Below, piece by piece: positions 12,891 to 45,465 of a stretch of DNA of 64,000 nucleotides (position 1 is the stretch's first letter; each line of letters starts with the position of its first letter). The position numbers and the translations under genes were made by a program. The stretch spans positions 474,850-538,849 of the forward strand of contig JAKLEP010000001.1 of assembly GCA_022703055.1 (NCBI GenBank), given 5' to 3'. This stretch comes from Candidatus Omnitrophota bacterium (GTDB lineage Bacteria > Omnitrophota > Gorgyraeia > VGKH01). The notes below the pieces were generated by a model that was not told where the DNA came from, ran no database searches, and saw only the letters and a list, made by a program, of their open reading frames with translations.

Positions 12891-13406
12891 ATGTTCAGAA
12901 AGACTATTGAAGAATTAAAGAATAAAGCAATAAAATTAGGAGCCAGAGATAGTAAGGTTATTGATGTAAAGACCATCAAGACCGCGGCATGGGTGAGGTA
13001 TAAATGCGAATTTGGCTGCGATGGATTCGGGGAATGCCTTACTTGCCCGCCGTATTCGCCCACCCCTGATGCGACGCAAAAAATCTTGGATTGTTTTAAG
13101 AAGGCGATTTTCATTCATTGCCAGAGCGGCTCCCACGTAGATATCTCCCGGGTGGTATTAAAATTGGAGAAAGAGGCGTTTTTGGCCGGATATCATAAGG
13201 CTTTGGGGATGGGCGCAGGCCCATGCAGGCTTTGTAACGATTGTAATTTAAAAGGCGCCTGCCGCCATCGCGAAATGGCGCGTCCGTCAATGGAGGCCTG
13301 CGGGATAGATGTTTTTACTACCGCGCGAAACAACGGATTTAAGATTGAGACGCTTGATTCAACCAGATGTAGGGCAAATTACTTTGGTCTGGTATTGATT
13401 GCATAA
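12891..13406 (+). CDS. DUF2284-type predicted metal-binding protein
   Basis: Cys-rich pattern CEFGCDGFGECLTCPPYSP plus CRLCNDCNLKGACRH. Confidence 0.6.
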   Translation: MFRKTIEELKNKAIKLGARDSKVIDVKTIKTAAWVRYKCEFGCDGFGECLTCPPYSPTPDATQKILDCFKKAIFIHCQSGSHVDISRVVLKLEKEAFLAGYHKALGMGAGPCRLCNDCNLKGACRHREMARPSMEACGIDVFTTARNNGFKIETLDSTRCRANYFGLVLIA

Positions 13407-13495
13407 TTAAAAGATATCAGTTGTCATTTGAAAATTAAATGATATATTGTATTTGGAGATTCGCTTATGAGTCTCTAATGGGTTAGGGGGTGAAA

Positions 13496-13660
13496 ATGAC
13501 AGCATATAATGACGGCGGATTCCGTAAAGATTTCCGCCCAAGAGAAATGTTCAAGGCAGTTTGCGCAGAATGTAATCAGGAATGTGAAGTTCCATTCAAG
13601 CCGACTGAAGGCAAACCCGTTTACTGCAGGGATTGCTATAAAAAGAAAAAAGGATATTAA
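13496..13660 (+). CDS. Small zinc-ribbon protein (54 aa), paralog of the C-terminus of 7620-8048
   Basis: Not in the ORF track. ATG 13496 follows GGGGGTGA and the stop is TAA 13658-13660. The ribbon is CAECNQECEVPFKPTEGKPVYCRDCY. Confidence 0.65.
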   Translation: MTAYNDGGFRKDFRPREMFKAVCAECNQECEVPFKPTEGKPVYCRDCYKKKKGY

Positions 13661-13694
13661 GTTTAGATAGATTAATATCTAGTTTGAAGATAGG

Positions 13695-13773
13695 GGCCCC
13701 TCACCTTTTTAGAATTCAAATAGTTTTTAATTTGAGTTTTAAAGATTATTGAATAAATAAAAGGTGAGGGGCC
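13695..13773. repeat. Long-loop inverted repeat; the left arm belongs to the GGCCCCTCRCCTTTTTAG repeat
   Basis: GGCCCCTCACCTTTT (13695-13709) pairs perfectly with AAAAGGTGAGGGGCC (13759-13773). The left arm plus flank resembles 6438-6463. Confidence 0.6.
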
Positions 13774-13791
13774 TATCGATTCCTCTTTGTC

Positions 13792-14754
13792 ATGTTAAAA
13801 ATCGGCAATCTAAAATTAAAATCCCGCCTGATACTTGCTCCTATGGCAGGAGTGAGCGATTATCCTTACCGCATGATCAACCGTAAATTCGGATTTGAAC
13901 TGGCATTTACGGAAATGATTAACTGCCGTTCCTTAAGCTTTAAAAGCAAAAAGACTAAACGCATGCTTTATTTCGATTCCAACGACAAGCCTATAGGTAT
14001 CCAGTTATTGGCTGCTCATCCGGAATATTTATTGCGCGCCCTCGAAGTAATCAAGGACTATAAATTTGATATTATTGATTTTAATGCCGCCTGCCCGGTG
14101 AAAAAAGTGGTTAATAGGGGCGAGGGTGCGGCGCTCTTGAAGCATCCCAAGAAATTAAATCGTCTTCTTCGAATCATTGTCAAGGAATCAAGTGTTCCGG
14201 TTACGGTGAAACTGCGTACCGGCTGGGACGGTAAAGTTTCTGACATCAAAGAACTGGCTTCTGCCTGCGAAGATTCCGGGATTGACGCGATTTTTATCCA
14301 CGGCAGGACCAGAGAACAGGCTTACGGCGGCGATATCGATTACGAAACCATCAAGGAACTTAAGGACCACGTTAAGATTCCGGTGATTGCCAGCGGCAAT
14401 GTCCTCAATCCGCAATTGGCCAAGAAGATGTTCGATGAAACTGATTGCGATGCGGTCCTTGTGGCTCGCGGTGCTTTGGGCAACCCTTGGATATTTAAAG
14501 AGATTTCTGGGTTCCTAAAAGACGGTAGTTCCATGAAGGAACCTTCTAAAAGCGAGAGAATAGAGGCGATTAAGCGGCATTTAGATATGAATGTCGACTT
14601 TTACGGTGAGAAAAACGGCGTAAAATTATTCCGTAGGTTTCTTATCTGGTATACCAAGGGCCTGCCCAAGATACGAACTTTAAGAGAAACCATAAACCGC
14701 ATGAAGACCAAGGAGAGCATGGTTGATTTTATCGACAGGTGCTTTTATCTTTAA
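13792..14754 (+). CDS. dusB: tRNA-dihydrouridine synthase
   Basis: LAPMAGVSDYPYR, NAACPVKKV, and a TIM-barrel Dus pattern including IFIHGRT. Confidence 0.85.
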   Translation: MLKIGNLKLKSRLILAPMAGVSDYPYRMINRKFGFELAFTEMINCRSLSFKSKKTKRMLYFDSNDKPIGIQLLAAHPEYLLRALEVIKDYKFDIIDFNAACPVKKVVNRGEGAALLKHPKKLNRLLRIIVKESSVPVTVKLRTGWDGKVSDIKELASACEDSGIDAIFIHGRTREQAYGGDIDYETIKELKDHVKIPVIASGNVLNPQLAKKMFDETDCDAVLVARGALGNPWIFKEISGFLKDGSSMKEPSKSERIEAIKRHLDMNVDFYGEKNGVKLFRRFLIWYTKGLPKIRTLRETINRMKTKESMVDFIDRCFYL

Positions 14755-32651: not shown

Positions 32652-34889
32652 ATGAAGAGAATTCTACTATTTATTTTGCCGATTTTGATTATAGTTGCTC
32701 TGGGAGTTACTATTTCTGGAATTATGCAGGTACGTTTTACGGAAGAGAGGCTTATAGACGATCTTAAAAGAAAGGCCAAGAGCGTCGACGAGAGCCTGGA
32801 GGTATCGGCACGGTATATTCTTATAAATAATGATTTAAGATCGGCTAATCGTATCGTTGAAACTTTTCAAAAAAGAGAAAGGCTCCAAGGTTGCGTTATC
32901 TATGATAAAGAAGGGAATATTCTGGCTATTACCGAGAAGATCTCTGACTGGGCTCAAAAAGATAAGCCTTATATTCAGGAAATTCTAGCTTCAAAGAATC
33001 CTCGTGGCACGATTGAAAATTTTAAAGAATACTCTGTGTATAGCTATATTTTACCAGTTTTGGATGACGAAAGTAATGTGCTGGGGTTGGTTGAGGTTGT
33101 ATACGACACTTCCTACATGTTTATAACTTTAACGGAGCTTTGGAAAAGGACAAGTATCACTTTGATCATCTTAATATTATTAATAGCTGCTACTGCATTG
33201 TTGATTCAAAGGCAAATTTTTATTTTGCCTGTCAGAAGACTGACCGAATGGTTTGTGCATTTTCAAAAGGGGGATACCGAAAGATGGCATCCGATCAAGG
33301 AAAAGGGTGAGTTGGGCAAGCTTGCCAGTGAAGTCGAGCAGCTAGCGTTGGGCATCAGGGTCGCTCGCAAGACGATCTCCGAGGATGCGCAATTCCGCCT
33401 GCTTAAAGAAGAATCTTGGACTGAAACAAAATTGAGGGACTTGGTTAGGGCAAAACTGGGAGAAAAAGCGTTCTTTGTCGTGTCTAACAGAGAGCCTTAT
33501 ATGCATGTTATTGACGAGGCAACGGGTATACCTAAATGTATCAGGCCTGCAAGCGGCGTAGTAACGGCTATAGACCCAATTTTGCGCGCTTGCGGTGGAA
33601 CTTGGATCGCTAATGGCAGCGCCGATGCCGATAAGAAATTCGTGAACTCCAAGAATAAACTTGGCGTTCCTCCCGAGGACAATCGATATATATTGAAAAG
33701 AGTTTGGTTAACCAAAGAAGAGGAAGAGGGGTATTATTATGGATTTGCCAATGAAGGGTTATGGCCCCTGTGTCACGTTACTCACACCAGGCCTATTTTC
33801 AGAGAGTCTGACTGGCAGATTTATAAAAAAGTGAATCAGAAATTCGCAGAAAGTGTTTTGGAAGAGCTGCCTGCAGGCAACCCTTTTATTTTTATCCAGG
33901 ATTACCACTTCACCTTGCTTGCCAAAATGATTAAAGAAAGGCGCCCGGATGCTATCGTAGCTTTATTTTGGCATATCCCATGGCCGAATCCGGAAGTTTT
34001 TGGTATTTGCCCTTATCAAAAGGAGATTCTATTTGGGATGTTGTCTTGCGACTTGATAGGTTTTCATGTGCAGTACCATTGCAACAACTTTTTAGATACA
34101 GCCAATAGGTCCATAGAATGCCGGGTGGACACAGAGAAATTCAGCGTGGTAATGGCCAATAAAGAAACATTGGTGAGAGCTTTTCCGATAAGTATCAATG
34201 GCCAGACAAATGGCAGTGGTTTTCAGGCAGAGCCAGCCAGGGAAATAGAGAACTTGAAGAAAGAATTTGAGTTGCACGATAAAATAATTGCCCTTGGCGT
34301 AGACAGAATAGACTATACCAAAGGTATAGTCGAGAGGATATTAGCAATCGACAGATTCCTGGAGAAGTATCCTCAATACAAGAAAAAGTTTGTTTTTATC
34401 CAGTTAGCCGCCCCAAGCCGCACGCATATAAAGCGTTATCATGACCTTATAGGAGAGATTGACGAGTTGGTAGAAAAGAAAAACTGGAAATACCAAGACG
34501 GTAATTGGAGGCCGATAGTATATCTCAAGAAGCATTTTTCTCAAGATGAAATAAAGCCATTTTATATGCTTGCCGATATATGTATAGTCAGTTCTTTGCA
34601 TGATGGCATGAATTTGGTGGCTAAAGAATACGTTGCGTCAAAGAGAGATTTATCAGGCGCGTTGATCTTGAGCCAATTTACTGGCGCTGCGAAAGAATTA
34701 GCAGATGCAATCCAGATTAATCCGTACTCTATAGAAGAATTTGCTGATGCAATAAAGTTTACAGTGGAATTGCCTTCGGAAGACAAGAAAAAACGCATGG
34801 AAAGCATGCGCAAGGTTATTACCGAGAATAATGTCTACCGATGGGCCGGAGATATTATTACAGAACTGACCTCCCTTAGAAAAAGCTAG
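32652..34889 (+). CDS. otsA: Trehalose-6-phosphate synthase (GT20, OtsA) with an N-terminal TM, extracytoplasmic sensor, TM and HAMP-like module
   Basis: There is TM1 near aa 5-25 and a ~140-aa loop with VIYDKEGNILA. TM2 is ITLIILILLIAATALLI. The HAMP-like segment is ILPVRRLTEWF...GELGKLASEVEQLA. The GT20 core has FFVVSNREPY, GLWPLCH, FIQDYHFTLL and FWHIPWPNPE. Confidence 0.85.
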   Translation: MKRILLFILPILIIVALGVTISGIMQVRFTEERLIDDLKRKAKSVDESLEVSARYILINNDLRSANRIVETFQKRERLQGCVIYDKEGNILAITEKISDWAQKDKPYIQEILASKNPRGTIENFKEYSVYSYILPVLDDESNVLGLVEVVYDTSYMFITLTELWKRTSITLIILILLIAATALLIQRQIFILPVRRLTEWFVHFQKGDTERWHPIKEKGELGKLASEVEQLALGIRVARKTISEDAQFRLLKEESWTETKLRDLVRAKLGEKAFFVVSNREPYMHVIDEATGIPKCIRPASGVVTAIDPILRACGGTWIANGSADADKKFVNSKNKLGVPPEDNRYILKRVWLTKEEEEGYYYGFANEGLWPLCHVTHTRPIFRESDWQIYKKVNQKFAESVLEELPAGNPFIFIQDYHFTLLAKMIKERRPDAIVALFWHIPWPNPEVFGICPYQKEILFGMLSCDLIGFHVQYHCNNFLDTANRSIECRVDTEKFSVVMANKETLVRAFPISINGQTNGSGFQAEPAREIENLKKEFELHDKIIALGVDRIDYTKGIVERILAIDRFLEKYPQYKKKFVFIQLAAPSRTHIKRYHDLIGEIDELVEKKNWKYQDGNWRPIVYLKKHFSQDEIKPFYMLADICIVSSLHDGMNLVAKEYVASKRDLSGALILSQFTGAAKELADAIQINPYSIEEFADAIKFTVELPSEDKKKRMESMRKVITENNVYRWAGDIITELTSLRKS

Positions 34890-34911
34890 GATTACAAGAT
34901 GGAGTTGCCTG

Positions 34912-35706
34912 ATGGAACATTTACTTGATAGTTGGCCAAAACTGGAAGGCAATTTTAAAGACAGGGTAGTTTTTATTTTCTTTGACTACGACGGTACTTT
35001 GACGCCGATTGCGGATACTCCTGCCGAGGCGACGATATCCCAAGATGTTAAGAATTTATTAAACAAGCTCTCCGAAAATCCCGCTTTCAAATTAGCTATT
35101 ATCAGCGGGAGATCATTAAACGATATAAAAAATATTATTGGCCTTACGAATATTATTTATGTTGGTAACCATGGTTTGGAAATAGAAGGGGAAAAGATAA
35201 AATTTGAAAGCCAGGTTTCGCCGAGATTGAAATCGATTATAAAGCGTCTATATGAGAACTCGGTAAAAAAGTTTTCGAAAATTAAAGGAGTTTTAGTCGA
35301 AGATAAAGGATTGTCAATTAGCGTCCATTACCGCTTGGTAGACAAAAACGATATGCAAGAATTTATGAGGATTCTCAATGAATTAATTGAGCCTTATATT
35401 GGCCGCGGGAAAATAAAAATTAATCCTGGGAAGAAAGTTTATGATATAAAACCTCCAGCAGGCTGGGATAAAGGAAAAGTTGCATTGTGGCTATTGGCAA
35501 GAGAGCAATTTTCAAAAGGGGAAAATAAGATTTTCCCGGTTTATATCGGAGATGACGTAACTGATGAGGATGCTTTTAGGGCATTGGCCAACAAAGGCCT
35601 GACAATATTCGTGGGTGAACCTGATAAAACTGAAGCAAAGTTTTATTTAAAAGACACATCCGAAGTCGCTGAATTTATTAGACGCATTGCAGCATTAAGA
35701 GAATAA
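34912..35706 (+). CDS. otsB: Trehalose-6-phosphate phosphatase (HAD)
   Basis: FFDYDGTLTPI, ISGR and IGDDVTDEDAF. Confidence 0.85.
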   Translation: MEHLLDSWPKLEGNFKDRVVFIFFDYDGTLTPIADTPAEATISQDVKNLLNKLSENPAFKLAIISGRSLNDIKNIIGLTNIIYVGNHGLEIEGEKIKFESQVSPRLKSIIKRLYENSVKKFSKIKGVLVEDKGLSISVHYRLVDKNDMQEFMRILNELIEPYIGRGKIKINPGKKVYDIKPPAGWDKGKVALWLLAREQFSKGENKIFPVYIGDDVTDEDAFRALANKGLTIFVGEPDKTEAKFYLKDTSEVAEFIRRIAALRE

Positions 35707-35711
35707 GATAT

Positions 35712-36392
35712 ATGCCTAAATCGACAGAAGCAAAAGAGCCGTTTAAATTTTATACAAGACTGCATTTATCGGAATTGACCGGTTTAAGGGCCTCGACTTT
35801 GGGGCAGCTTTTAGACTTAATAAAAACCGTCCCGGGTTCTTGTATTTATCATCATACCCATAGATTTTTGCAACAGCATCAATACCTTTCCCCTGAACCG
35901 CCCAACGATTTTGCTTATTGGGTAGCCAATGTTCTGGGCGAAGATGAGCTCGGAGAAAGGTTGGCTAGCATTGACACAATACAATATTCAACTATACGTG
36001 CTTTAAGAGAAATAATTGTATTTACCATAGAAGATTATTTAAAGAACAATCCTTTGGCTAAGCTAAAGTTTGCCCGAGCCGGCGAAGAATTTTATTTTAT
36101 AAAATCAGCGAGTTTTATTTTACCTACAAATTATGTTGTTAATGACTTGGAAGGCTTCGTGGAAGTGGTGAAAAAAATAACAATAGACTCGATATATTTT
36201 CATATTTTTGAGTCGCGTCTTAGGCTTGAGCGGCCAACCAATGATTTTTCTAATTGGATAGAAACTTCTGTGGGAAACAAAAAATTAGCTGATGAGATTT
36301 CTAGGCTTGACCCTTATACCCATACTTTAGAAGACTTAAGAAAAACAATTATTAGGGTAATTAAAAGGAATATGCATGGCAAAAATAGATGA
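35712..36392 (+). CDS. Conserved hypothetical protein, translationally coupled to treT
   Basis: 226 aa. Its end overlaps the treT start by 17 nt. No motif recognised. Confidence 0.6.
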   Translation: MPKSTEAKEPFKFYTRLHLSELTGLRASTLGQLLDLIKTVPGSCIYHHTHRFLQQHQYLSPEPPNDFAYWVANVLGEDELGERLASIDTIQYSTIRALREIIVFTIEDYLKNNPLAKLKFARAGEEFYFIKSASFILPTNYVVNDLEGFVEVVKKITIDSIYFHIFESRLRLERPTNDFSNWIETSVGNKKLADEISRLDPYTHTLEDLRKTIIRVIKRNMHGKNR

Positions 36393-37587
36393 ATATATCC
36401 CTATCGTGGGCCAATCGACAATAGATGATTTGAAATTGCTCGCTGAGAGGCTGAAAGGTAAGGTAGTCCAGCATATCAATTCGACTTCTGTTGGTGGTGG
36501 AGTGGCAGAAATATTAAATCGCATGGTGCCGCTTTTGAGAGAGGTAGGGGTGGATACGAGATGGGATTTGATTAAAGGAGGAGAGCAGTTTTTTGAGGTA
36601 ACAAAGAAAATTCACAATGCCTTGCATGGCAGGCTTGATACGGTAAATCGGCAAGATATTGATATCTTTATGGAAACAAGCAAAAAGAATATCGAAGAGG
36701 TAAATACTTCGAGCGATATTGTTTTTATTCACGACCCTCAGCCAATCGCCTTAATAGATAAAAAGGCTACCAACAAGTGGATTTGGCGTTGTCATGTAGA
36801 CGTATCAAATCCCAGCCAGGAAGTTTGGGATTTTTTGATGGGGTTTATATCTAGGTATGATGCGGCGGTATTTTCTGCGCCTAGCTTTTCCCGAGTAATG
36901 CCCATAAGGCAATTTTTAATATCTCCTTCCATCGATCCTTTAAGCGATAAGAATAAAGATCTTTCCGACGAGACTATTAATGAAGTCTTAGAAAAATACG
37001 GGATTTTTAGGGATAAACCAATTATAACTCAGATTTCCCGTTTTGACCGGCTAAAAGATCCTATTGGTGTCATCGAGGCTTATCTTAAAGTTAAAAAATA
37101 TATCGATTGCCAACTGATTTTAGCCGGAGGTACAGCATCTGATGATCCGGAAGGCCTCCAAGTCCTAGAAGAAGTCAAAGAAAGAGCCCAACAGGATAAA
37201 GACATGCACATTCTTCTTTTACCTCAAAATGATATAGAGGTTAACGCCTTACAAAGAGCTTCCGATGTAATTGTCCAGAAATCAATCAAGGAAGGATTTG
37301 GATTAACTGTAGCTGAGGCCTTGTGGAAAGCTAAGCCTGTGGTGGCTTCGAATATCGGCGGGATACCACTGCAAATAAAGCACAGATATTCTGGTTTGCT
37401 TTGTAATTCAATTGACGGTGCAGCATTTGCGATAAAACAGCTTCTTAACAGCCAAGAGTACGCTAAGAAACTAGGAGAGAATGGCAGGGAGCACATAAAA
37501 AACAATTTTTTAGTCACTCGCCATATTAGGGATTATCTGTTGTTATTCCTTTCTCTTTATCATCAAGAAGATGTCGTTTATTTATAA
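36376..37587 (+). CDS. treT: Trehalose glycosyltransferring synthase (TreT-like GT4)
   Basis: Long collinear similarity to archaeal TreT as I recall it. Shared segments are NSTSVGGGVAEIL, FFEVTKKIHNALHG, HDPQP, WRCHVD, SIDPLSDKN, PIITQISRFDRLKDP, DDPEG and EGFGLTVAEALWK. Confidence 0.7.
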   Translation: MAKIDEYIPIVGQSTIDDLKLLAERLKGKVVQHINSTSVGGGVAEILNRMVPLLREVGVDTRWDLIKGGEQFFEVTKKIHNALHGRLDTVNRQDIDIFMETSKKNIEEVNTSSDIVFIHDPQPIALIDKKATNKWIWRCHVDVSNPSQEVWDFLMGFISRYDAAVFSAPSFSRVMPIRQFLISPSIDPLSDKNKDLSDETINEVLEKYGIFRDKPIITQISRFDRLKDPIGVIEAYLKVKKYIDCQLILAGGTASDDPEGLQVLEEVKERAQQDKDMHILLLPQNDIEVNALQRASDVIVQKSIKEGFGLTVAEALWKAKPVVASNIGGIPLQIKHRYSGLLCNSIDGAAFAIKQLLNSQEYAKKLGENGREHIKNNFLVTRHIRDYLLLFLSLYHQEDVVYL

Positions 37588-37968: not shown

Positions 37969-37973
37969 AATAG

Positions 37974-38098
37974 CTACCTTCGGGAGAGGGGTGAAATTCC
38001 CGACTGGTGGTAAAGTCCACGAGATTCGACCAATCGTCGGATCAGACCAAGTGTAATTCTTGGACCAATAGTCACAGTCTAGATGGGAGAAGGTAAAA
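37974..38098 (+). promoter_or_regulatory. FMN riboswitch (RFN element)
   Basis: P1 is ACCTTC...GAAGGT. Hallmark segments are GGGGTGAAATTCCCGACTGGTGGTAAAGTCCAC, GACCAAGTGTAATTCTTGGACC and AGTCTAGATGGGAGAAGG. It lies directly upstream of ribBA. Confidence 0.9.
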
Positions 38099-41130: not shown

Positions 41131-42235
41131 ATATTTTATGGATTTGGCTTTGAAGCTAGCGCTTAAAGCCAAAGGCAAGACCAGCCCTAATCCACTAGTC
41201 GGAGCAGTTATAGTAAAAAATAATAGAATTATAGGAGAAGGTTTCCATCGTAGAGCTGGAGAGCCGCACGCTGAGATAATTGCTTTAAGAAAAGCTGGAG
41301 AGAGTTCAAGAGGTTCGACCTTGTTCGTGACTTTAGAGCCTTGTTCACATTTTGGCAGGACCCCTCCTTGTGTTGTGGAGATTATTAAAAGCAAAATTAA
41401 GAAAGTAGTAATTGGCATGCAGGATCCCAATCCGATTAATAACGGGAAATCTATCCAGATCCTGCGCAGCCAGAAAATAGAGGTAAAGGTAGGTTGCCTT
41501 GAAGAAAAACTAAGAAGAATTAATGAAGATTTTACTAAATATATTACTCAAAAGATACCTTTTGTTACTGTAAAGGTTGCCCAGAGTCTCGACGGTAAGA
41601 TCGCCGTGGCTTCAGGGGAATCAAAGTGGATTACTTCCGAGAAATCAAGAAGCATAAGCCATGATTTAAGAAAATATTATGATGCTATTTTAGTGGGGAT
41701 AAATACAGTTTTAAAAGATGACCCTTTGCTTGATTGCCCTGATAGAGAAAAAAAGTTATATAAGGTTATAGTTGATAGCGATTTGAGAATTCCGCTAAAG
41801 TCCAAAATCTTTTCTGATGCTTCACACGGTAAAATCATCATCGCTACCACTAAGGATTTTACCAAAGAAAGCAAATACGACATTTTAGCTAAAAAAGAAG
41901 TTATTTTTATCAAAACTCCCAAGAAAGATGGCAAGGTAGACTTGCGATATTTGCTCAACCAACTCGCAAGGCTCGAGATAATGAATGTTTTGGTTGAGGG
42001 CGGAGGAAAGGTTATCGGTTCCATGTTTGATGAAGGACTGGTTGATAAGTTGATGTTTTTTATCGCGCTCAAGATTATTGGAGGAAATAATTCTATTACT
42101 TCGGTCAGCGGAAAAGGCGTAAGATTTATCAATGAAGCGATTCCCATAAATGATATCCAAATAAAGAACATTGACGGCGATATATTAGTGGAGGGATATG
42201 TTCACAGGGATAATAGAAAATCTCGGCAGTGTTGA
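41117..42235 (+). CDS. ribD: Bifunctional diaminohydroxyphosphoribosylaminopyrimidine deaminase / 5-amino-6-(5-phosphoribosylamino)uracil reductase
   Basis: NPLVGAVIV, HAEIIAL and TLEPCSHFGRTPPC, plus a C-terminal reductase domain. Confidence 0.95.
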   Translation: MKKDEYFMDLALKLALKAKGKTSPNPLVGAVIVKNNRIIGEGFHRRAGEPHAEIIALRKAGESSRGSTLFVTLEPCSHFGRTPPCVVEIIKSKIKKVVIGMQDPNPINNGKSIQILRSQKIEVKVGCLEEKLRRINEDFTKYITQKIPFVTVKVAQSLDGKIAVASGESKWITSEKSRSISHDLRKYYDAILVGINTVLKDDPLLDCPDREKKLYKVIVDSDLRIPLKSKIFSDASHGKIIIATTKDFTKESKYDILAKKEVIFIKTPKKDGKVDLRYLLNQLARLEIMNVLVEGGGKVIGSMFDEGLVDKLMFFIALKIIGGNNSITSVSGKGVRFINEAIPINDIQIKNIDGDILVEGYVHRDNRKSRQC

Positions 42236-42791
42236 AAAGAAAACATTTTTTGGCGGAATGTTGCGGCTTACGATAAAACTTGCTAAGCCAGTAAATGATA
42301 TCCGCTTGGGTGAAAGCATATCAGTAAACGGGGTATGCCTTACCGTGACAAAGATCGATAAAGATTTATTAACCTTTGATATTTTAGAGGAGACAAAAGC
42401 GAAAACTAATTTAGATGATTTGAAGATAAGAGATATGGTTAACATCGAGCGCGCCCTGAAGGCTAACGATCGCTTGAGCGGTCATTTTGTCGCTGGCCAC
42501 GTTGATAATACAGGAATCATCCGAAGAAAAGAATTGAGAAACGGAAGCTACGTTTTTCATATAGCAGTTTCAAAAGAACTAATTCCTTATATCGTACCTA
42601 AGGGTTCTATCGCCGTTGACGGGATAAGCTTAACCATCGTGGAAGTAAAAGGTAATATATTTAGCGTCCATATCATACCTCATACCTACAAAAATACATC
42701 GTTATCACAGAAATCGAATTCAGATAAGGTTAATATCGAAGTCGACCAACTTTCAAAATACGCAGCAAATTTGAATAAAACTCCCAGATAA
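42198..42791 (+). CDS. ribE: Riboflavin synthase alpha chain
   Basis: MFTGIIENLG and duplicated lumazine-binding repeats (SISVNGVCLTV and SIAVDGISLTI). Confidence 0.95.
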   Translation: MFTGIIENLGSVEKKTFFGGMLRLTIKLAKPVNDIRLGESISVNGVCLTVTKIDKDLLTFDILEETKAKTNLDDLKIRDMVNIERALKANDRLSGHFVAGHVDNTGIIRRKELRNGSYVFHIAVSKELIPYIVPKGSIAVDGISLTIVEVKGNIFSVHIIPHTYKNTSLSQKSNSDKVNIEVDQLSKYAANLNKTPR

Positions 42792-42833: not shown

Positions 42834-44072
42834 ATGGATAAACGCATTGTTATTTCGGGAATCGGAGTCCTCGCCTCAAACGGCGTTGGGCGTGCGCAAT
42901 ACTGGCAGTCACTGCGCCAGGGTAAAACCGGATTCAAGGAAGTTAGCCTTTTTGATGTTTCCAATCTAAAGGTAAAGATTGCTGGCGAAATCAGCGATTT
43001 TGATGCTAAAGTTTTCTTGGGGCAGAAGGGCCTGCGTTCCCTGGATAGAAGTACCAAGCTTCTTTGTTCTGCGGGAAAACTCGCCATTGACGATGCAGCA
43101 CTCAATATTACCGAAGAAAATTCCCAGGATACAGGAGTAGTTGTCGGTACCACTTTAGGCAGCGTCTATAGTATCAGCGAATTTGACAAGACTGCGCTTC
43201 GCGAAGGCCCGCGCTTTGTAAATCCCGCCGAATTCCCCAATACCGTAATTAATTCACCCGGCAGCCAAGTCTCTATCAAATTTAATATTAAAGGTTTTAA
43301 CACTACGATTTCTACAGGTTTTACGGCGAGCCTTGATGCTATCGGCTACGCCATTGATTTTATAAATTTTGGCAGGGCAAATGTTGTTTTAGCCGGGGGA
43401 GTCGAAGAGATGTGCATTCAGACTTTCTTAGGATTTTATAAATTAGAATTCATGTCTGGCTCCAAAGACGGCAATTTGCCGATTTGTTGTCCTTTCGACA
43501 AAAGAAGAAACGGTATAATTTTTGGCGAGGGGGCGGCATTTTTAGTACTGGAGGAATTGGAGCATGCTTTATCGCGGGGTGCTAATATCTTAGTAGAGAT
43601 TACAAATTTCTCTAGCGTCTTTGATCCCTATAGGATAAACAAATATAATCCTCGGGGAGATGGAATAAAAAATGCCATGCGTTTGGCGCTAGAAGAGGCA
43701 AGGCTTAAACCACAAGATATAGATTATATCTGTGCGAATGCAAATTCGACTGTTAAAGCAGATAAGATTGAGACTGACGCGATAAAAGAAATTTTCGGAA
43801 ACCAGGCCAAAAAAATCCCTGTAAGTGCGATAAAATCTATGACTGGTGAATGCTTTAGCGTTTCTGCGGTGCTGCAGGTAGCGGCAGCGGTAGGCGCGGT
43901 TAAGGAAGGTTTTATTCCTCCGACGGTAAATTATCACGAGAAAGACCCAGAATGCGATTTGGATTATGTTCCCAACCAAGCCAGACAAAAAGAAATCAGA
44001 AATGTATTAGTCAATTCTTTCGGGCCAAGTGGCAACAATAGCTGCCTTATAATAAAGAGGTACGAGAAATGA
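42834..44072 (+). CDS. Beta-ketoacyl-ACP synthase II homolog lacking the Cys-His-His catalytic triad
   Basis: Full-length FabF-like fold. TISTGFTASLDAIG aligns to E. coli FabF IATACTSGVHNIG (Cys to Phe). ICANANSTVKADK aligns to VNAHGTSTPAGDK (His to Asn). KSMTGECFSVSA aligns to KSMTGHLLGAAG (His to Glu). Confidence 0.8.
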   Translation: MDKRIVISGIGVLASNGVGRAQYWQSLRQGKTGFKEVSLFDVSNLKVKIAGEISDFDAKVFLGQKGLRSLDRSTKLLCSAGKLAIDDAALNITEENSQDTGVVVGTTLGSVYSISEFDKTALREGPRFVNPAEFPNTVINSPGSQVSIKFNIKGFNTTISTGFTASLDAIGYAIDFINFGRANVVLAGGVEEMCIQTFLGFYKLEFMSGSKDGNLPICCPFDKRRNGIIFGEGAAFLVLEELEHALSRGANILVEITNFSSVFDPYRINKYNPRGDGIKNAMRLALEEARLKPQDIDYICANANSTVKADKIETDAIKEIFGNQAKKIPVSAIKSMTGECFSVSAVLQVAAAVGAVKEGFIPPTVNYHEKDPECDLDYVPNQARQKEIRNVLVNSFGPSGNNSCLIIKRYEK

Positions 44073-44815
44073 TCCTAAAAGGAAAAGTAGCGATAATAAC
44101 TGGAGCGACCCGAGGTATCGGTCGGGCAATTGCCTTGGAATTGGCCAAAGAAGGCGCAGACATATCTTTCAACTATTTAAAGAACGCTGAACAGGCAAAA
44201 AATCTTGTTAAAGAAATTAATTCGTTGGGCAGAAAAGCTTTTGCTGAGCAGGTCGATATCAGCGATTTTGCGAAGGTAAAAGATTTTGTCGAGAAAACAA
44301 AAAATACTTTTGGCAAGCTTGATATCTTGGTCAACAATGCAGGTATTATTATTGATAAAGCATTAATGATGATGGAAGAGCAGGATTGGAGAAAAGTTAT
44401 TGATACCGATTTAAATGGCGCGTTTAATGCAACCCGTGCCTGTATTGTGAGTTTCTTAAAACAGAAGAGCGGTCAGATTGTAAATATATCCTCGGTGAGC
44501 GGGATTATTGGTTCTTCGCGGCAGACGAATTATTCGGCATCCAAAGCTGGGATTATCGGATTTACCAAAGCTTTGGCTAAAGAGGTGGCCGAATACAATA
44601 TCAGGGTTAATGCCGTAGCTCCGGGATATATCCAGACTGATATGTTGAATTCATTAAAAGAAGAACAAAAAGAGAGCGTGAAGAAGTTTATTCCTTTAGG
44701 TAGATTCGGCAAGCCTGAAGACATCGCAAGAGTAGTTTTATTTCTTTTAAGCGATGCGTCGCAGTATATAACCGGCCAAGTCATCGCAGTTGATGGTGGC
44801 ATAGCCATGCGTTAA
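44069..44815 (+). CDS. fabG: 3-oxoacyl-ACP reductase
   Basis: TGATRGIGRAIA, NNAG and YSASKAG. Confidence 0.9.
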   Translation: MILKGKVAIITGATRGIGRAIALELAKEGADISFNYLKNAEQAKNLVKEINSLGRKAFAEQVDISDFAKVKDFVEKTKNTFGKLDILVNNAGIIIDKALMMMEEQDWRKVIDTDLNGAFNATRACIVSFLKQKSGQIVNISSVSGIIGSSRQTNYSASKAGIIGFTKALAKEVAEYNIRVNAVAPGYIQTDMLNSLKEEQKESVKKFIPLGRFGKPEDIARVVLFLLSDASQYITGQVIAVDGGIAMR

Positions 44816-44830
44816 AAAAGGAGAATATGT

Positions 44831-45268
44831 ATGAAATATATGGGAATTGAAGAGATAAAACAGATCATACCGCATCGTTATCCGTTTCTGCTGGTAGACA
44901 AAGTCATTGATTGTGTCCCTAATGAGAAACTCGTTGCGATCAAGAATGTCTCGGTAAATGAAGAATTCTTTGTCGGGCATTTTCCTCAAGAGAAGGTTAT
45001 GCCGGGAGTATTAATTGTCGAAGCCTTAGCCCAGGCCGGGGCGGTATTTTTCTATTTAAGCAAAAAAACCAAAGAAGATAAAAACTTAATTTATTATCTG
45101 GCCAAGATTGAAGCGAAATTCATGAAGCCAGTTATACCCGGCGATCAACTAAGATTGGAAGTTAAGCCGATAAAGATGCTCTCAAACGTTGGTATTTTGT
45201 CTGCCGAGGCCTATGTTGGCGATGATTTAGTCACAAAAGCTGAACTAGCTTTTAGCGTAAAGGGTTAG
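44831..45268 (+). CDS. fabZ: 3-hydroxyacyl-ACP dehydratase FabZ
   Basis: PHRYPFLLVD, FFVGHFP, and PGVLIVEALAQAG. Confidence 0.9.
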   Translation: MKYMGIEEIKQIIPHRYPFLLVDKVIDCVPNEKLVAIKNVSVNEEFFVGHFPQEKVMPGVLIVEALAQAGAVFFYLSKKTKEDKNLIYYLAKIEAKFMKPVIPGDQLRLEVKPIKMLSNVGILSAEAYVGDDLVTKAELAFSVKG

Positions 45269-45386: not shown

Positions 45387-45465
45387 CGGGGAGTGGCTCA
45401 GTTTGGCTTAGAGCGCTTGGTTCGGGACCAAGAGGTCGTGGGTTCAAGTCCCACCTCCCCGACCA
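45387..45465 (+). tRNA. tRNA-Pro (anticodon CGG), CCA encoded
   Basis: Acceptor CGGGGAG/CTCCCCG. D arm GCTC-AGTTTGGCTTA-GAGC. Anticodon arm CTTGG-TTCGGGA-CCAAG with G37. T arm GTGGG-TTCAAGT-CCCAC. Discriminator A plus CCA. Confidence 0.9.

Follow-up and report, generated by a model that had tools for sequence, protein, structure and literature searches.

A gene of a Candidatus Omnitrophota bacterium, carried on a stretch of 64,000 nucleotides of contig JAKLEP010000001.1 (the whole of this stretch is referred to here as the window), encodes a protein of 412 residues that shows the fold and the length of the ketosynthase (KS) FabF but has lost the three catalytic residues; we call this protein KSmut. 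From the analyses presented below, it is quite likely that KSmut is the non-catalytic subunit, similar to a chain-length factor (CLF), of a heterodimeric ketosynthase of type II fatty-acid synthesis, and that it belongs to the orthologous group of amxFabFmut, a protein of the anammox bacteria.

This family is already known from anammox bacteria, where both its structure and its heterodimeric character have been described. In B. fulgida the active ketosynthase amxFabF2 and amxFabFmut, in which the catalytic triad is mutated, form a heterodimer named amxFabFhet (Granatino et al. 2026, bioRxiv 10.64898/2026.05.19.726425); their counterparts in the putative ladderane "Cluster I" are KustE3605 and KustE3606, and amxFabFmut, also known as Broful02170, is chain C of PDB 9s5h and 9s5i. 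In that study both proteins co-purify and each is inactive alone, whereas together they decarboxylate malonyl-ACP (ACP, acyl carrier protein) and form acetoacetyl-ACP. The residues Phe135, Thr138 and Val139 of amxFabFmut line the acyl tunnel of the active subunit, mutations of Phe135 and Val139 shift the chain-length preference, and amxFabFmut's helix-loop-helix motif is disordered in the crystal of the homodimer and ordered in the heterodimer; the protein was presented as the first chain-length factor in a fatty-acid pathway. Both this preprint and the 2023 paper on the dehydratase amxFabZ (PMC10139942) call the cluster unique to ladderane producers, and neither of them mentions homologs outside the anammox bacteria. 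What is new in this work is comparative: the module is widespread, it is split in the lineage of the window, and a link connects it with the core fab genes.

Conservation of the substituted catalytic residues

An earlier note on this DNA, made from the sequence alone, had described KSmut as a protein similar to FabF from end to end in which the Cys, His and His of the triad are replaced by Phe, Asn and Glu. Both parts of this description hold. The reading frame is intact and begins with ATG, the two ketoacyl-synthase domains (PF00109, E 8e-39; PF02801, E 2e-25) span the whole protein, and the alignment with solved FabFs is complete. To follow the substitutions, KSmut and its 120 best database orthologs (n=121) were aligned using MAFFT with E. 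coli FabF, the E. coli reference sequences having been entered by hand. The catalytic C163 of FabF corresponds to F163 of KSmut (Phe in 118 of the 121 sequences and Tyr in the other 3), H303 is occupied by Asn (119/121), and H340 corresponds to E339 (Glu in 117, Asp in 4), while K335, equivalent to K334 of KSmut, is Lys in all 121; the earlier note had stated that KSmut retains it. Independent HMMER alignments to the solved B. subtilis FabF and to amxFabF2 also place Phe opposite the catalytic Cys and Glu opposite the second His; opposite the first His a deletion of 2 residues leaves either N300 or N302, both of them Asn. The equivalents of Asp311 and Glu314 of FabF are retained as well. The glycine-rich C-terminus, which had been reported as retained, is kept only in part (NSFGPSGNN in KSmut versus NSFGFGGTN), and the gating residue Phe400 is Pro in 120 of the 121 sequences.

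Each of these 120 relatives (61-91% identical to KSmut) either bears the annotation Candidatus Omnitrophota or originates from that group. Since the substitutions are fixed in 117-119 of the 121 orthologs and dN/dS is about 0.03 (0.03 between KSmut and an ortholog that is 91% identical), they are not the product of decay, and KSmut is under strong purifying selection. That KSmut could be a decaying pseudogene or a sequencing error, for which nothing beyond the loss of the triad would speak, is hardly credible given the intact frame of 412 residues, the identical protein found on 7 independent contigs (one of them the 500-kb JGI contig that contains the window), the fixation of the substitutions in orthologs down to about 60% identity, and a confident structural model.

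This model, an AlphaFold2 monomer obtained with 37 orthologs, has a pLDDT of 87.9 and a pTM of 0.89, and its uncertainty is confined to residues 110-140. When it was compared with the PDB using Foldseek, with a library that ends on 2026-04-08 so that 9s5h was not among the possible matches, the best fold match was B. subtilis FabF (TM 0.90); FabFs rank first, and chains of polyketide synthase (PKS) ketosynthases appear from rank 43 on. Canonical FabFs (KAS II; B. subtilis 4ls5, E. coli 1kas) thus share the fold and the length of KSmut, with 34-39% identity, but they possess the triad and the gating Phe that KSmut lacks. KSmut scores below the cut-offs of the NCBIfam fabF equivalog TIGR03150 (383.8 versus 493.75) and of the subfamily NF005589 (367.8 versus 387), for which an active partner-type KS, P0237, scores 441 and 428.6, respectively. 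Moreover, KSmut would be a subunit of a heterodimer rather than a homodimer. Proteins similar to KSmut should not be annotated as active beta-ketoacyl-ACP synthases.

The idea that KSmut is a CLF (KS-beta) of a type II polyketide pathway, or a CLF-like subunit of the aryl-polyene type, shares with our interpretation the logic of an inactive KS paralog that lines the tunnel of an active KS, as is the case for the actinorhodin ActI-ORF2 (1tqy_B) and the ishigamide Iga12. In addition, the FabZ encoded next to KSmut matches the ApeP-like and ApeI-like hot-dog Pfam families, and the FabG matches the flexirubin FlxB model, below its cut-off. In contrast, the CLFs of type II PKS carry Gln at the position of the Cys, where KSmut has Phe (Tyr in the 3 orthologs mentioned), as the earlier note had pointed out, and they are encoded beside KS-alpha in polyketide clusters. 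The match of KSmut to 1tqy_B (E 2.5e-49) is far behind those to FabFs (about 1e-87) and to amxFabFmut (3e-128), Foldseek places FabFs ahead of the PKS KS chains, and neither cyclase, aromatase, ApeE, ApeK or export genes (LolA/MMPL) nor acyltransferase, thioesterase or methyltransferase genes were found within 10 kb of KSmut. We therefore consider a polyketide or aryl-polyene CLF very improbable, the membership in an aryl-polyene cluster having been judged from the gene neighborhood.

Relationship with amxFabFmut and the split operon

The best solved relative of KSmut is chain C of 9s5h, with which it aligns collinearly over 409 residues (residues 3-411, E 3e-128, 50% identity); the next matches in the PDB are 9s5h_B (E 4e-87) and the canonical FabFs. 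Both KSmut and amxFabFmut have lost the Cys-His-His triad and kept the Lys. Phylogenetic placement, which the earlier note had proposed as a check, was carried out with a neighbor-joining tree of 115 sequences in which two FabFs were the only outgroup; the sequences of the anammox proteins had been reconstructed out of HMMER alignments or, for the first 128 residues, taken from the supplement of PMC4790861. The KSmut proteins of Omnitrophota and Nitrospirota form one clade with amxFabFmut, and the active partner KSs form another clade with amxFabF2, both in 100/100 bootstraps. In the N-terminal 128 residues KSmut is 50% identical to kuste3606 versus 31-34% to kuste2805, kuste3605 and kustd1386. 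The residues F134, T137 and V138 of KSmut, invariant across 37 orthologs, align with Phe135, Thr138 and Val139 of amxFabFmut with a uniform offset of +1. The region of low confidence in the model (residues 110-140) coincides with the interface motif for which amxFabFmut shows disorder in the homodimer crystal and order in the heterodimer; this agreement is suggestive but not a proof. A count of the net charge of the interface (residues 109-139 and 195-205) gave no asymmetry for KSmut, but this count also missed that of the published B. fulgida pair (both -3), so that it carries no information.

Another anammox protein, Kuste2805, a "non-canonical FabB" of K. stuttgartiensis, carries the same Phe/Asn/Glu residues with the Lys kept (Rattray et al. 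2009, PMC2649909, Table 2). It was examined as a closer relative of KSmut on account of this shared pattern and was rejected, given that its N-terminal 128 residues are 33% identical to those of KSmut versus 50% for kuste3606; it is encoded next to a radical-SAM gene and kuste2804.

The gene linkage of KSmut was analyzed in its relatives by a two-pattern scan with one genome per species, which gave 446 relatives, and the best 80 loci were read. About 50 of these have the architecture of the window, ribE-KSmut-fabG-fabZ-acyP-(phosphoesterase)-ligA, to which we refer as type A; neither an ACP nor a second KS was found within 10 kb in them, and the adjacency of ribE and KSmut, kept in all of these loci, is the hallmark of the split arrangement. 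At least 24 of the best 80 loci are of a second type (type B), with the order KSmut-fabG-ACP-fabZ-active KS, and one of them stands in a complete genome, that of Ca. Velamenicoccus archaeovorus; in Nitrospirota metagenome-assembled genomes the order is fabG-KSmut-fabZ-KS-ACP. The active partner possesses the Cys/His/His triad and shows 49-58% identity with amxFabF2. KSmut, the active KS, ACP and FabZ occur together, usually with FabG, in 24 of 80 loci centered on KSmut and in 51 of 87 centered on the partner, that is, KSmut is operonic with an active KS of the amxFabF2 type in 75 loci of Omnitrophota and Nitrospirota. In 9 of the 87 partner-centered loci the active KS directly follows plsX-fabH-fabD without KSmut, in 26 the sequence is too short to judge, and in 1 the KS stands alone, at least 4 kb of upstream sequence containing neither KSmut nor fabD. 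Some type B clusters, several in number, abut fabH-plsX.

In the lineage of the window the operon is split, since the single-cell genome AM-311-J20 (JBHPFN01) holds a type A locus and an active KS on separate contigs. On JBHPFN010000010.1 the order is ribE-KSmut-fabG-fabZ, with a KSmut 71% identical to that of the window, and on JBHPFN010000006.1 the genes recG-coaD-yceD-rpmF-plsX-fabH-fabD are followed, after an interval, by the active KS P0237, so that the active partner occupies the usual place of fabF in the universal fab cluster. After P0237 come a histidine kinase gene, the gene of a third KS and one for a phytoene-desaturase-like protein. No ACP was found in either of these two loci. 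In searches of protein databases with partner-type queries, no type A genome was present among the best 120 matches; for this reason the type A partners are probably below about 60% identity to the queries used.

The FabZ encoded with KSmut points in the same direction. The best solved relatives of the FabZ of the window are the Scalindua amxFabZ structures 7qv0, 8ayb, 8ayc and 8ayi (E about 4e-40), versus about 2e-33 for canonical FabZs. Three hallmarks distinguish amxFabZ, namely two altered positions in the ACP patch and a tunnel-blocking Ile69 (PMC10139942); the FabZ of the window shows the first two, with M96 and L115 where canonical enzymes carry Lys or Arg, and has Ala instead of Ile at tunnel position 69, whereas Ile69 is present in 20 of 23 type B FabZs. 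The ACPs of the Omnitrophota clusters show 37-47% identity with amxACP and 24-37% with the canonical ACP of Kuenenia, although the bit scores are similar and do not discriminate between them. Like amxFabFmut, then, the relatives of KSmut are operonic with an amxFabF2-type KS, ACP, an amxFabZ-like FabZ and a flavoprotein similar to kuste3607.

In contrast with the anammox gene, which adjoins the active amxFabF2-type KS, KSmut has no second KS beside it in the window; it is apart from its partner and ACP, at the end of a riboflavin operon and with fabG, the partner in its lineage sits in the housekeeping cluster plsX-fabH-fabD, and its host belongs to the Omnitrophota, with no B12 radical-SAM gene nearby. 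We know of no Omnitrophota that make ladderanes. No ortholog of the B12 radical-SAM gene kuste3608 was found near any cluster examined, and this enzyme is the exception among the Cluster I gene types, of which 5 of 6 recur outside the anammox bacteria. By its sequence KSmut appears as a member of the family but not as part of a ladderane cluster, given that the accompanying FabZ has two of the three amxFabZ hallmarks, there is no ACP in the window, and the kuste3608 ortholog is lacking.

A core of four proteins (inactive KS, active KS, FabZ variant and ACP), often accompanied by the phytoene-desaturase-like gene, occurs commonly in Omnitrophota and in part of the Nitrospirota, and it is physically linked to plsX-fabH-fabD. 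With this distribution, its proteins alone cannot be used as ladderane markers. It had been noted before that antiSMASH assigns "ladderane" clusters to Omnitrophota and other phyla, and fatty-acid synthesis was suggested as the explanation (10.1101/2022.12.20.521206); the presence of the core outside the anammox bacteria helps to explain these calls. The search for the true ladderane-forming step is narrowed in this way, and non-anammox homologs are now on hand for biochemistry.

Other features of these loci were recorded. In at least 15 loci (L087-L092, L028, L037, L039, L056, L075-L079, L084) the partner KS has as a neighbor a gene of the flavin amine-oxidase/phytoene-desaturase family; the product of this gene is 29-41% identical to kuste3607 (E 1e-37 to 1e-61), closer to it than to kuste3336 or CrtI, and its frequent companions are an NAD-dependent epimerase/3-beta-HSD-like gene, a nitroreductase gene and genes of two-component systems. 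The third KS (431-436 residues) is divergent, about 25-28% identical to FabF, with an intact Cys/His/His and an insertion in its N-terminal half; it is encoded downstream of the active partner KS, beside HisKA_7TM sensor kinases and the phytoene-desaturase-like gene. The JGI contig Ga0265297_10000079 (351 kb; L086/L099) carries two copies of the module in tandem, KSmut-fabG-ACP-fabZ-KS followed by KSmut-fabZ-KS-ACP-PDH-KS3. Small genes for 23S_rRNA_IVP (four-helix-bundle), GIY-YIG and HTH_17 proteins are recurrently inserted in or beside the Omnitrophota fab loci, exactly where the split arrangement misses KSmut-fabG-ACP-fabZ. In four further loci (L093, L107, L116 and L137) the order is plsX-fabH-fabD-fabZ-active KS and the contig lacks KSmut; the place of the inactive subunit varies between lineages.

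Proposed mechanism and its alternatives

In the mechanism that we propose, KSmut would have the full thiolase fold and would be unable to be acylated owing to the change of Cys to Phe, while the changes of His to Asn and of His to Glu would block the decarboxylation of malonyl-ACP. It would pair with an active KS of the amxFabF2 type, encoded elsewhere in the lineage of the window beside rpmF-plsX-fabH-fabD. The helix-loop-helix of KSmut (approximately residues 110-140, with F134, T137 and V138) would close and shape the acyl tunnel at the only active site, that of the partner, and this lid and tunnel wall would set the range of acyl chains; the two steps that come next in every elongation cycle would fall to the translationally coupled FabG and the amxFabZ-like FabZ. 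The earlier note had suggested a non-catalytic partner, similar to a CLF, of a KS encoded elsewhere and co-expressed with fabG-fabZ, and this suggestion is supported by the clade shared with amxFabFmut, by the 75 operonic loci and by the single-cell genome with the partner on another contig. The heterodimer in Omnitrophota and the control of chain length by KSmut are extrapolated from the anammox pair, and a role in primary rather than specialized lipid synthesis is suggested by the linkage of the partner KS to plsX-fabH-fabD.

Several facts weigh against this interpretation. For the genome from which the window comes, neither the partner KS nor the ACP was located: both are absent from the 64 kb of the window, and when P0237, the type A partner, was used to scan metagenomes, the 80 loci obtained included none from sample 3300010429 and not the contig of the window. 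The link to a partner is thus indirect, through AM-311-J20. The protein from which heterodimerization is extrapolated shares only 50% identity with KSmut. The anammox heterodimer itself showed in vitro only decarboxylation and the formation of acetoacetyl-ACP, elongation not being observed, and the amxFabFmut of S. brodae can crystallize as a homodimer (Granatino et al. 2026). The residues that replace the triad also differ, being F/N/E in KSmut versus V or T, then N/E/C, in the anammox proteins; the motif of the first His is NAN versus NAY, and the gate position is Pro versus Arg in Kuste3606.

The alternative that best survives concerns the product rather than the pairing: KSmut and the active KS could serve a specialized lipid pathway, leading to a polyunsaturated or modified chain, with the participation of the phytoene-desaturase-like flavoprotein and the third KS. 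There is room for such a lipid because of the adjacent desaturase-like gene (in at least 15 loci, and similar to kuste3607), the third KS with its intact triad and the HisKA_7TM sensor kinases that adjoin the partner; this idea also resembles the proposal for the anammox Cluster I, the tunnel-blocking Ile69 predominates in type B FabZs, and antiSMASH labels such Omnitrophota clusters as "ladderane". We consider it unlikely, however, given that in 9-10 loci the partner occupies the slot of fabF in the universal yceD-rpmF-plsX-fabH-fabD cluster and other clusters abut fabH-plsX, that the only fabG and fabZ seen in the window are those coupled to KSmut, that the FabZ of the window has a small residue at position 69, and that the kuste3608 ortholog is lacking near all the clusters.

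Less probable still is that KSmut acts by itself, as a homodimer without an obligate KS partner, binding or sequestering acyl-ACP or lipids or exerting a regulatory role. The lack of a partner gene within 20 kb on either side in the window, and within 10 kb in the approximately 50 loci of type A, would fit this view, as would the homodimer crystals from S. brodae and the fact that the inactive subunit of the anammox heterodimer has a tunnel of its own, with polyethylene glycol (PEG) bound. Nevertheless, in 75 loci a member of this orthologous group shares an operon with an active KS, the partner is encoded in a single-cell genome of type A, the conserved residues of KSmut are those that line the tunnel of the partner, and the anammox subunit alone showed neither activity nor crosslinking. 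A "new ligand-binding role", which the earlier note had also contemplated, found no support and is not needed to explain the data.

If KSmut is the subunit of a heterodimer, as we favor, a bolder proposal can be made, which we put forward tentatively and regard as rather doubtful in its full extent: that the obligate pair of active and inactive KS is the only elongating condensing enzyme in Omnitrophota and in some Nitrospirota, and that the core of the anammox Cluster I is a borrowed or inherited copy of it. Were this true, a whole phylum would run its primary fatty-acid synthesis on a heterodimer similar to a KS/chain-length factor, the core of the anammox "ladderane Cluster I" (ACP, FabZ, FabF2, FabFmut and the phytoene-desaturase-like PDH) would be a copy of a housekeeping module, and the B12 radical-SAM enzyme would be the only remaining candidate for a ladderane-specific gene of Cluster I.

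Gene neighborhood in the window

The coordinates of the features are given in Table 1. KSmut is surrounded by rib genes, fabG, fabZ, acyP and ligA. Its stop codon, TGA (44070-44072), overlaps the start codon of fabG, ATG (44069-44071), in the sequence ATGA (44069-44072), as had been noticed before, and the tRNA gene marks the downstream boundary of the KSmut-fabG-fabZ unit. It had also been stated that the window lacks an active KS, ACP, FabD and FabI, which is correct as far as tblastn (no second KS) and the ACP hidden Markov model (no ACP) can tell; plsX, fabH and fabD were not found in the window, and the E. coli FabI query gave a weak match to FabG only. Scans for promoters and terminators around the operon gave counts no better than in shuffled sequence.

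Table 1. Location of the features described in the text; positions refer to the window unless a locus is named
Feature	Position	Strand	Remarks
KSmut, FabF-like pseudo-ketosynthase, 412 aa	42834..44072	+	triad F163 / N(300 or 302) / E339, K334 kept
fabG, 3-oxoacyl-ACP reductase	44069..44815	+	TIGR01830 equivalog score 318.1, cut-off 297.75 (passed)
fabZ, 3-hydroxyacyl-ACP dehydratase	44831..45268	+	catalytic His and Glu intact
ribE, riboflavin synthase	42198..42791	+	42 bp upstream of KSmut
tRNA-Pro(CGG)	45387..45465	+	within the gap of 416 bp that separates fabZ from the acylphosphatase gene
FMN riboswitch (Rfam RF00050)	37972-38098	+	99 bits
Radical-SAM-like ORF, 469 aa	16321-17730	+	CxxxCxxC motif
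Trehalose cluster	32652-37587	+	
Third KS, locus L092 (AM-311-J20, JBHPFN010000006.1)	12924-14234		
Third KS, locus L086	12904-14199		
Third KS, locus L090	15499-16800		
Third KS, locus L016	14156-15439		
Third KS, locus L036	14069-15337		
Small-gene insertions	L087, L089-L092		between fabD and KS; also L086, L089, L091

Upstream of KSmut, the flavin mononucleotide (FMN) riboswitch precedes the genes ribBA-ribH-nusB-PHP-ribD-ribE, and this run reaches KSmut-fabG-fabZ across just the gap between ribE and KSmut. Given the shortness of this gap and the adjacency of ribE and KSmut in about 50 loci, the fatty-acid elongation genes may be co-transcribed with the riboflavin operon, or read through from it, under the control of FMN.

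The window also includes, 25 kb from KSmut, an ORF that resembles a radical-SAM enzyme with a B12-binding domain; its similarity to kuste3608 is weak (23% over 317 residues, E 2e-20) and it is probably unrelated to KSmut. The trehalose cluster comprises a trehalose-6-phosphate synthase of 745 residues, extended at its N-terminus by a membrane/sensor-like region, together with a trehalose phosphatase, a DUF5752 protein and a glycosyltransferase of the TreT type.

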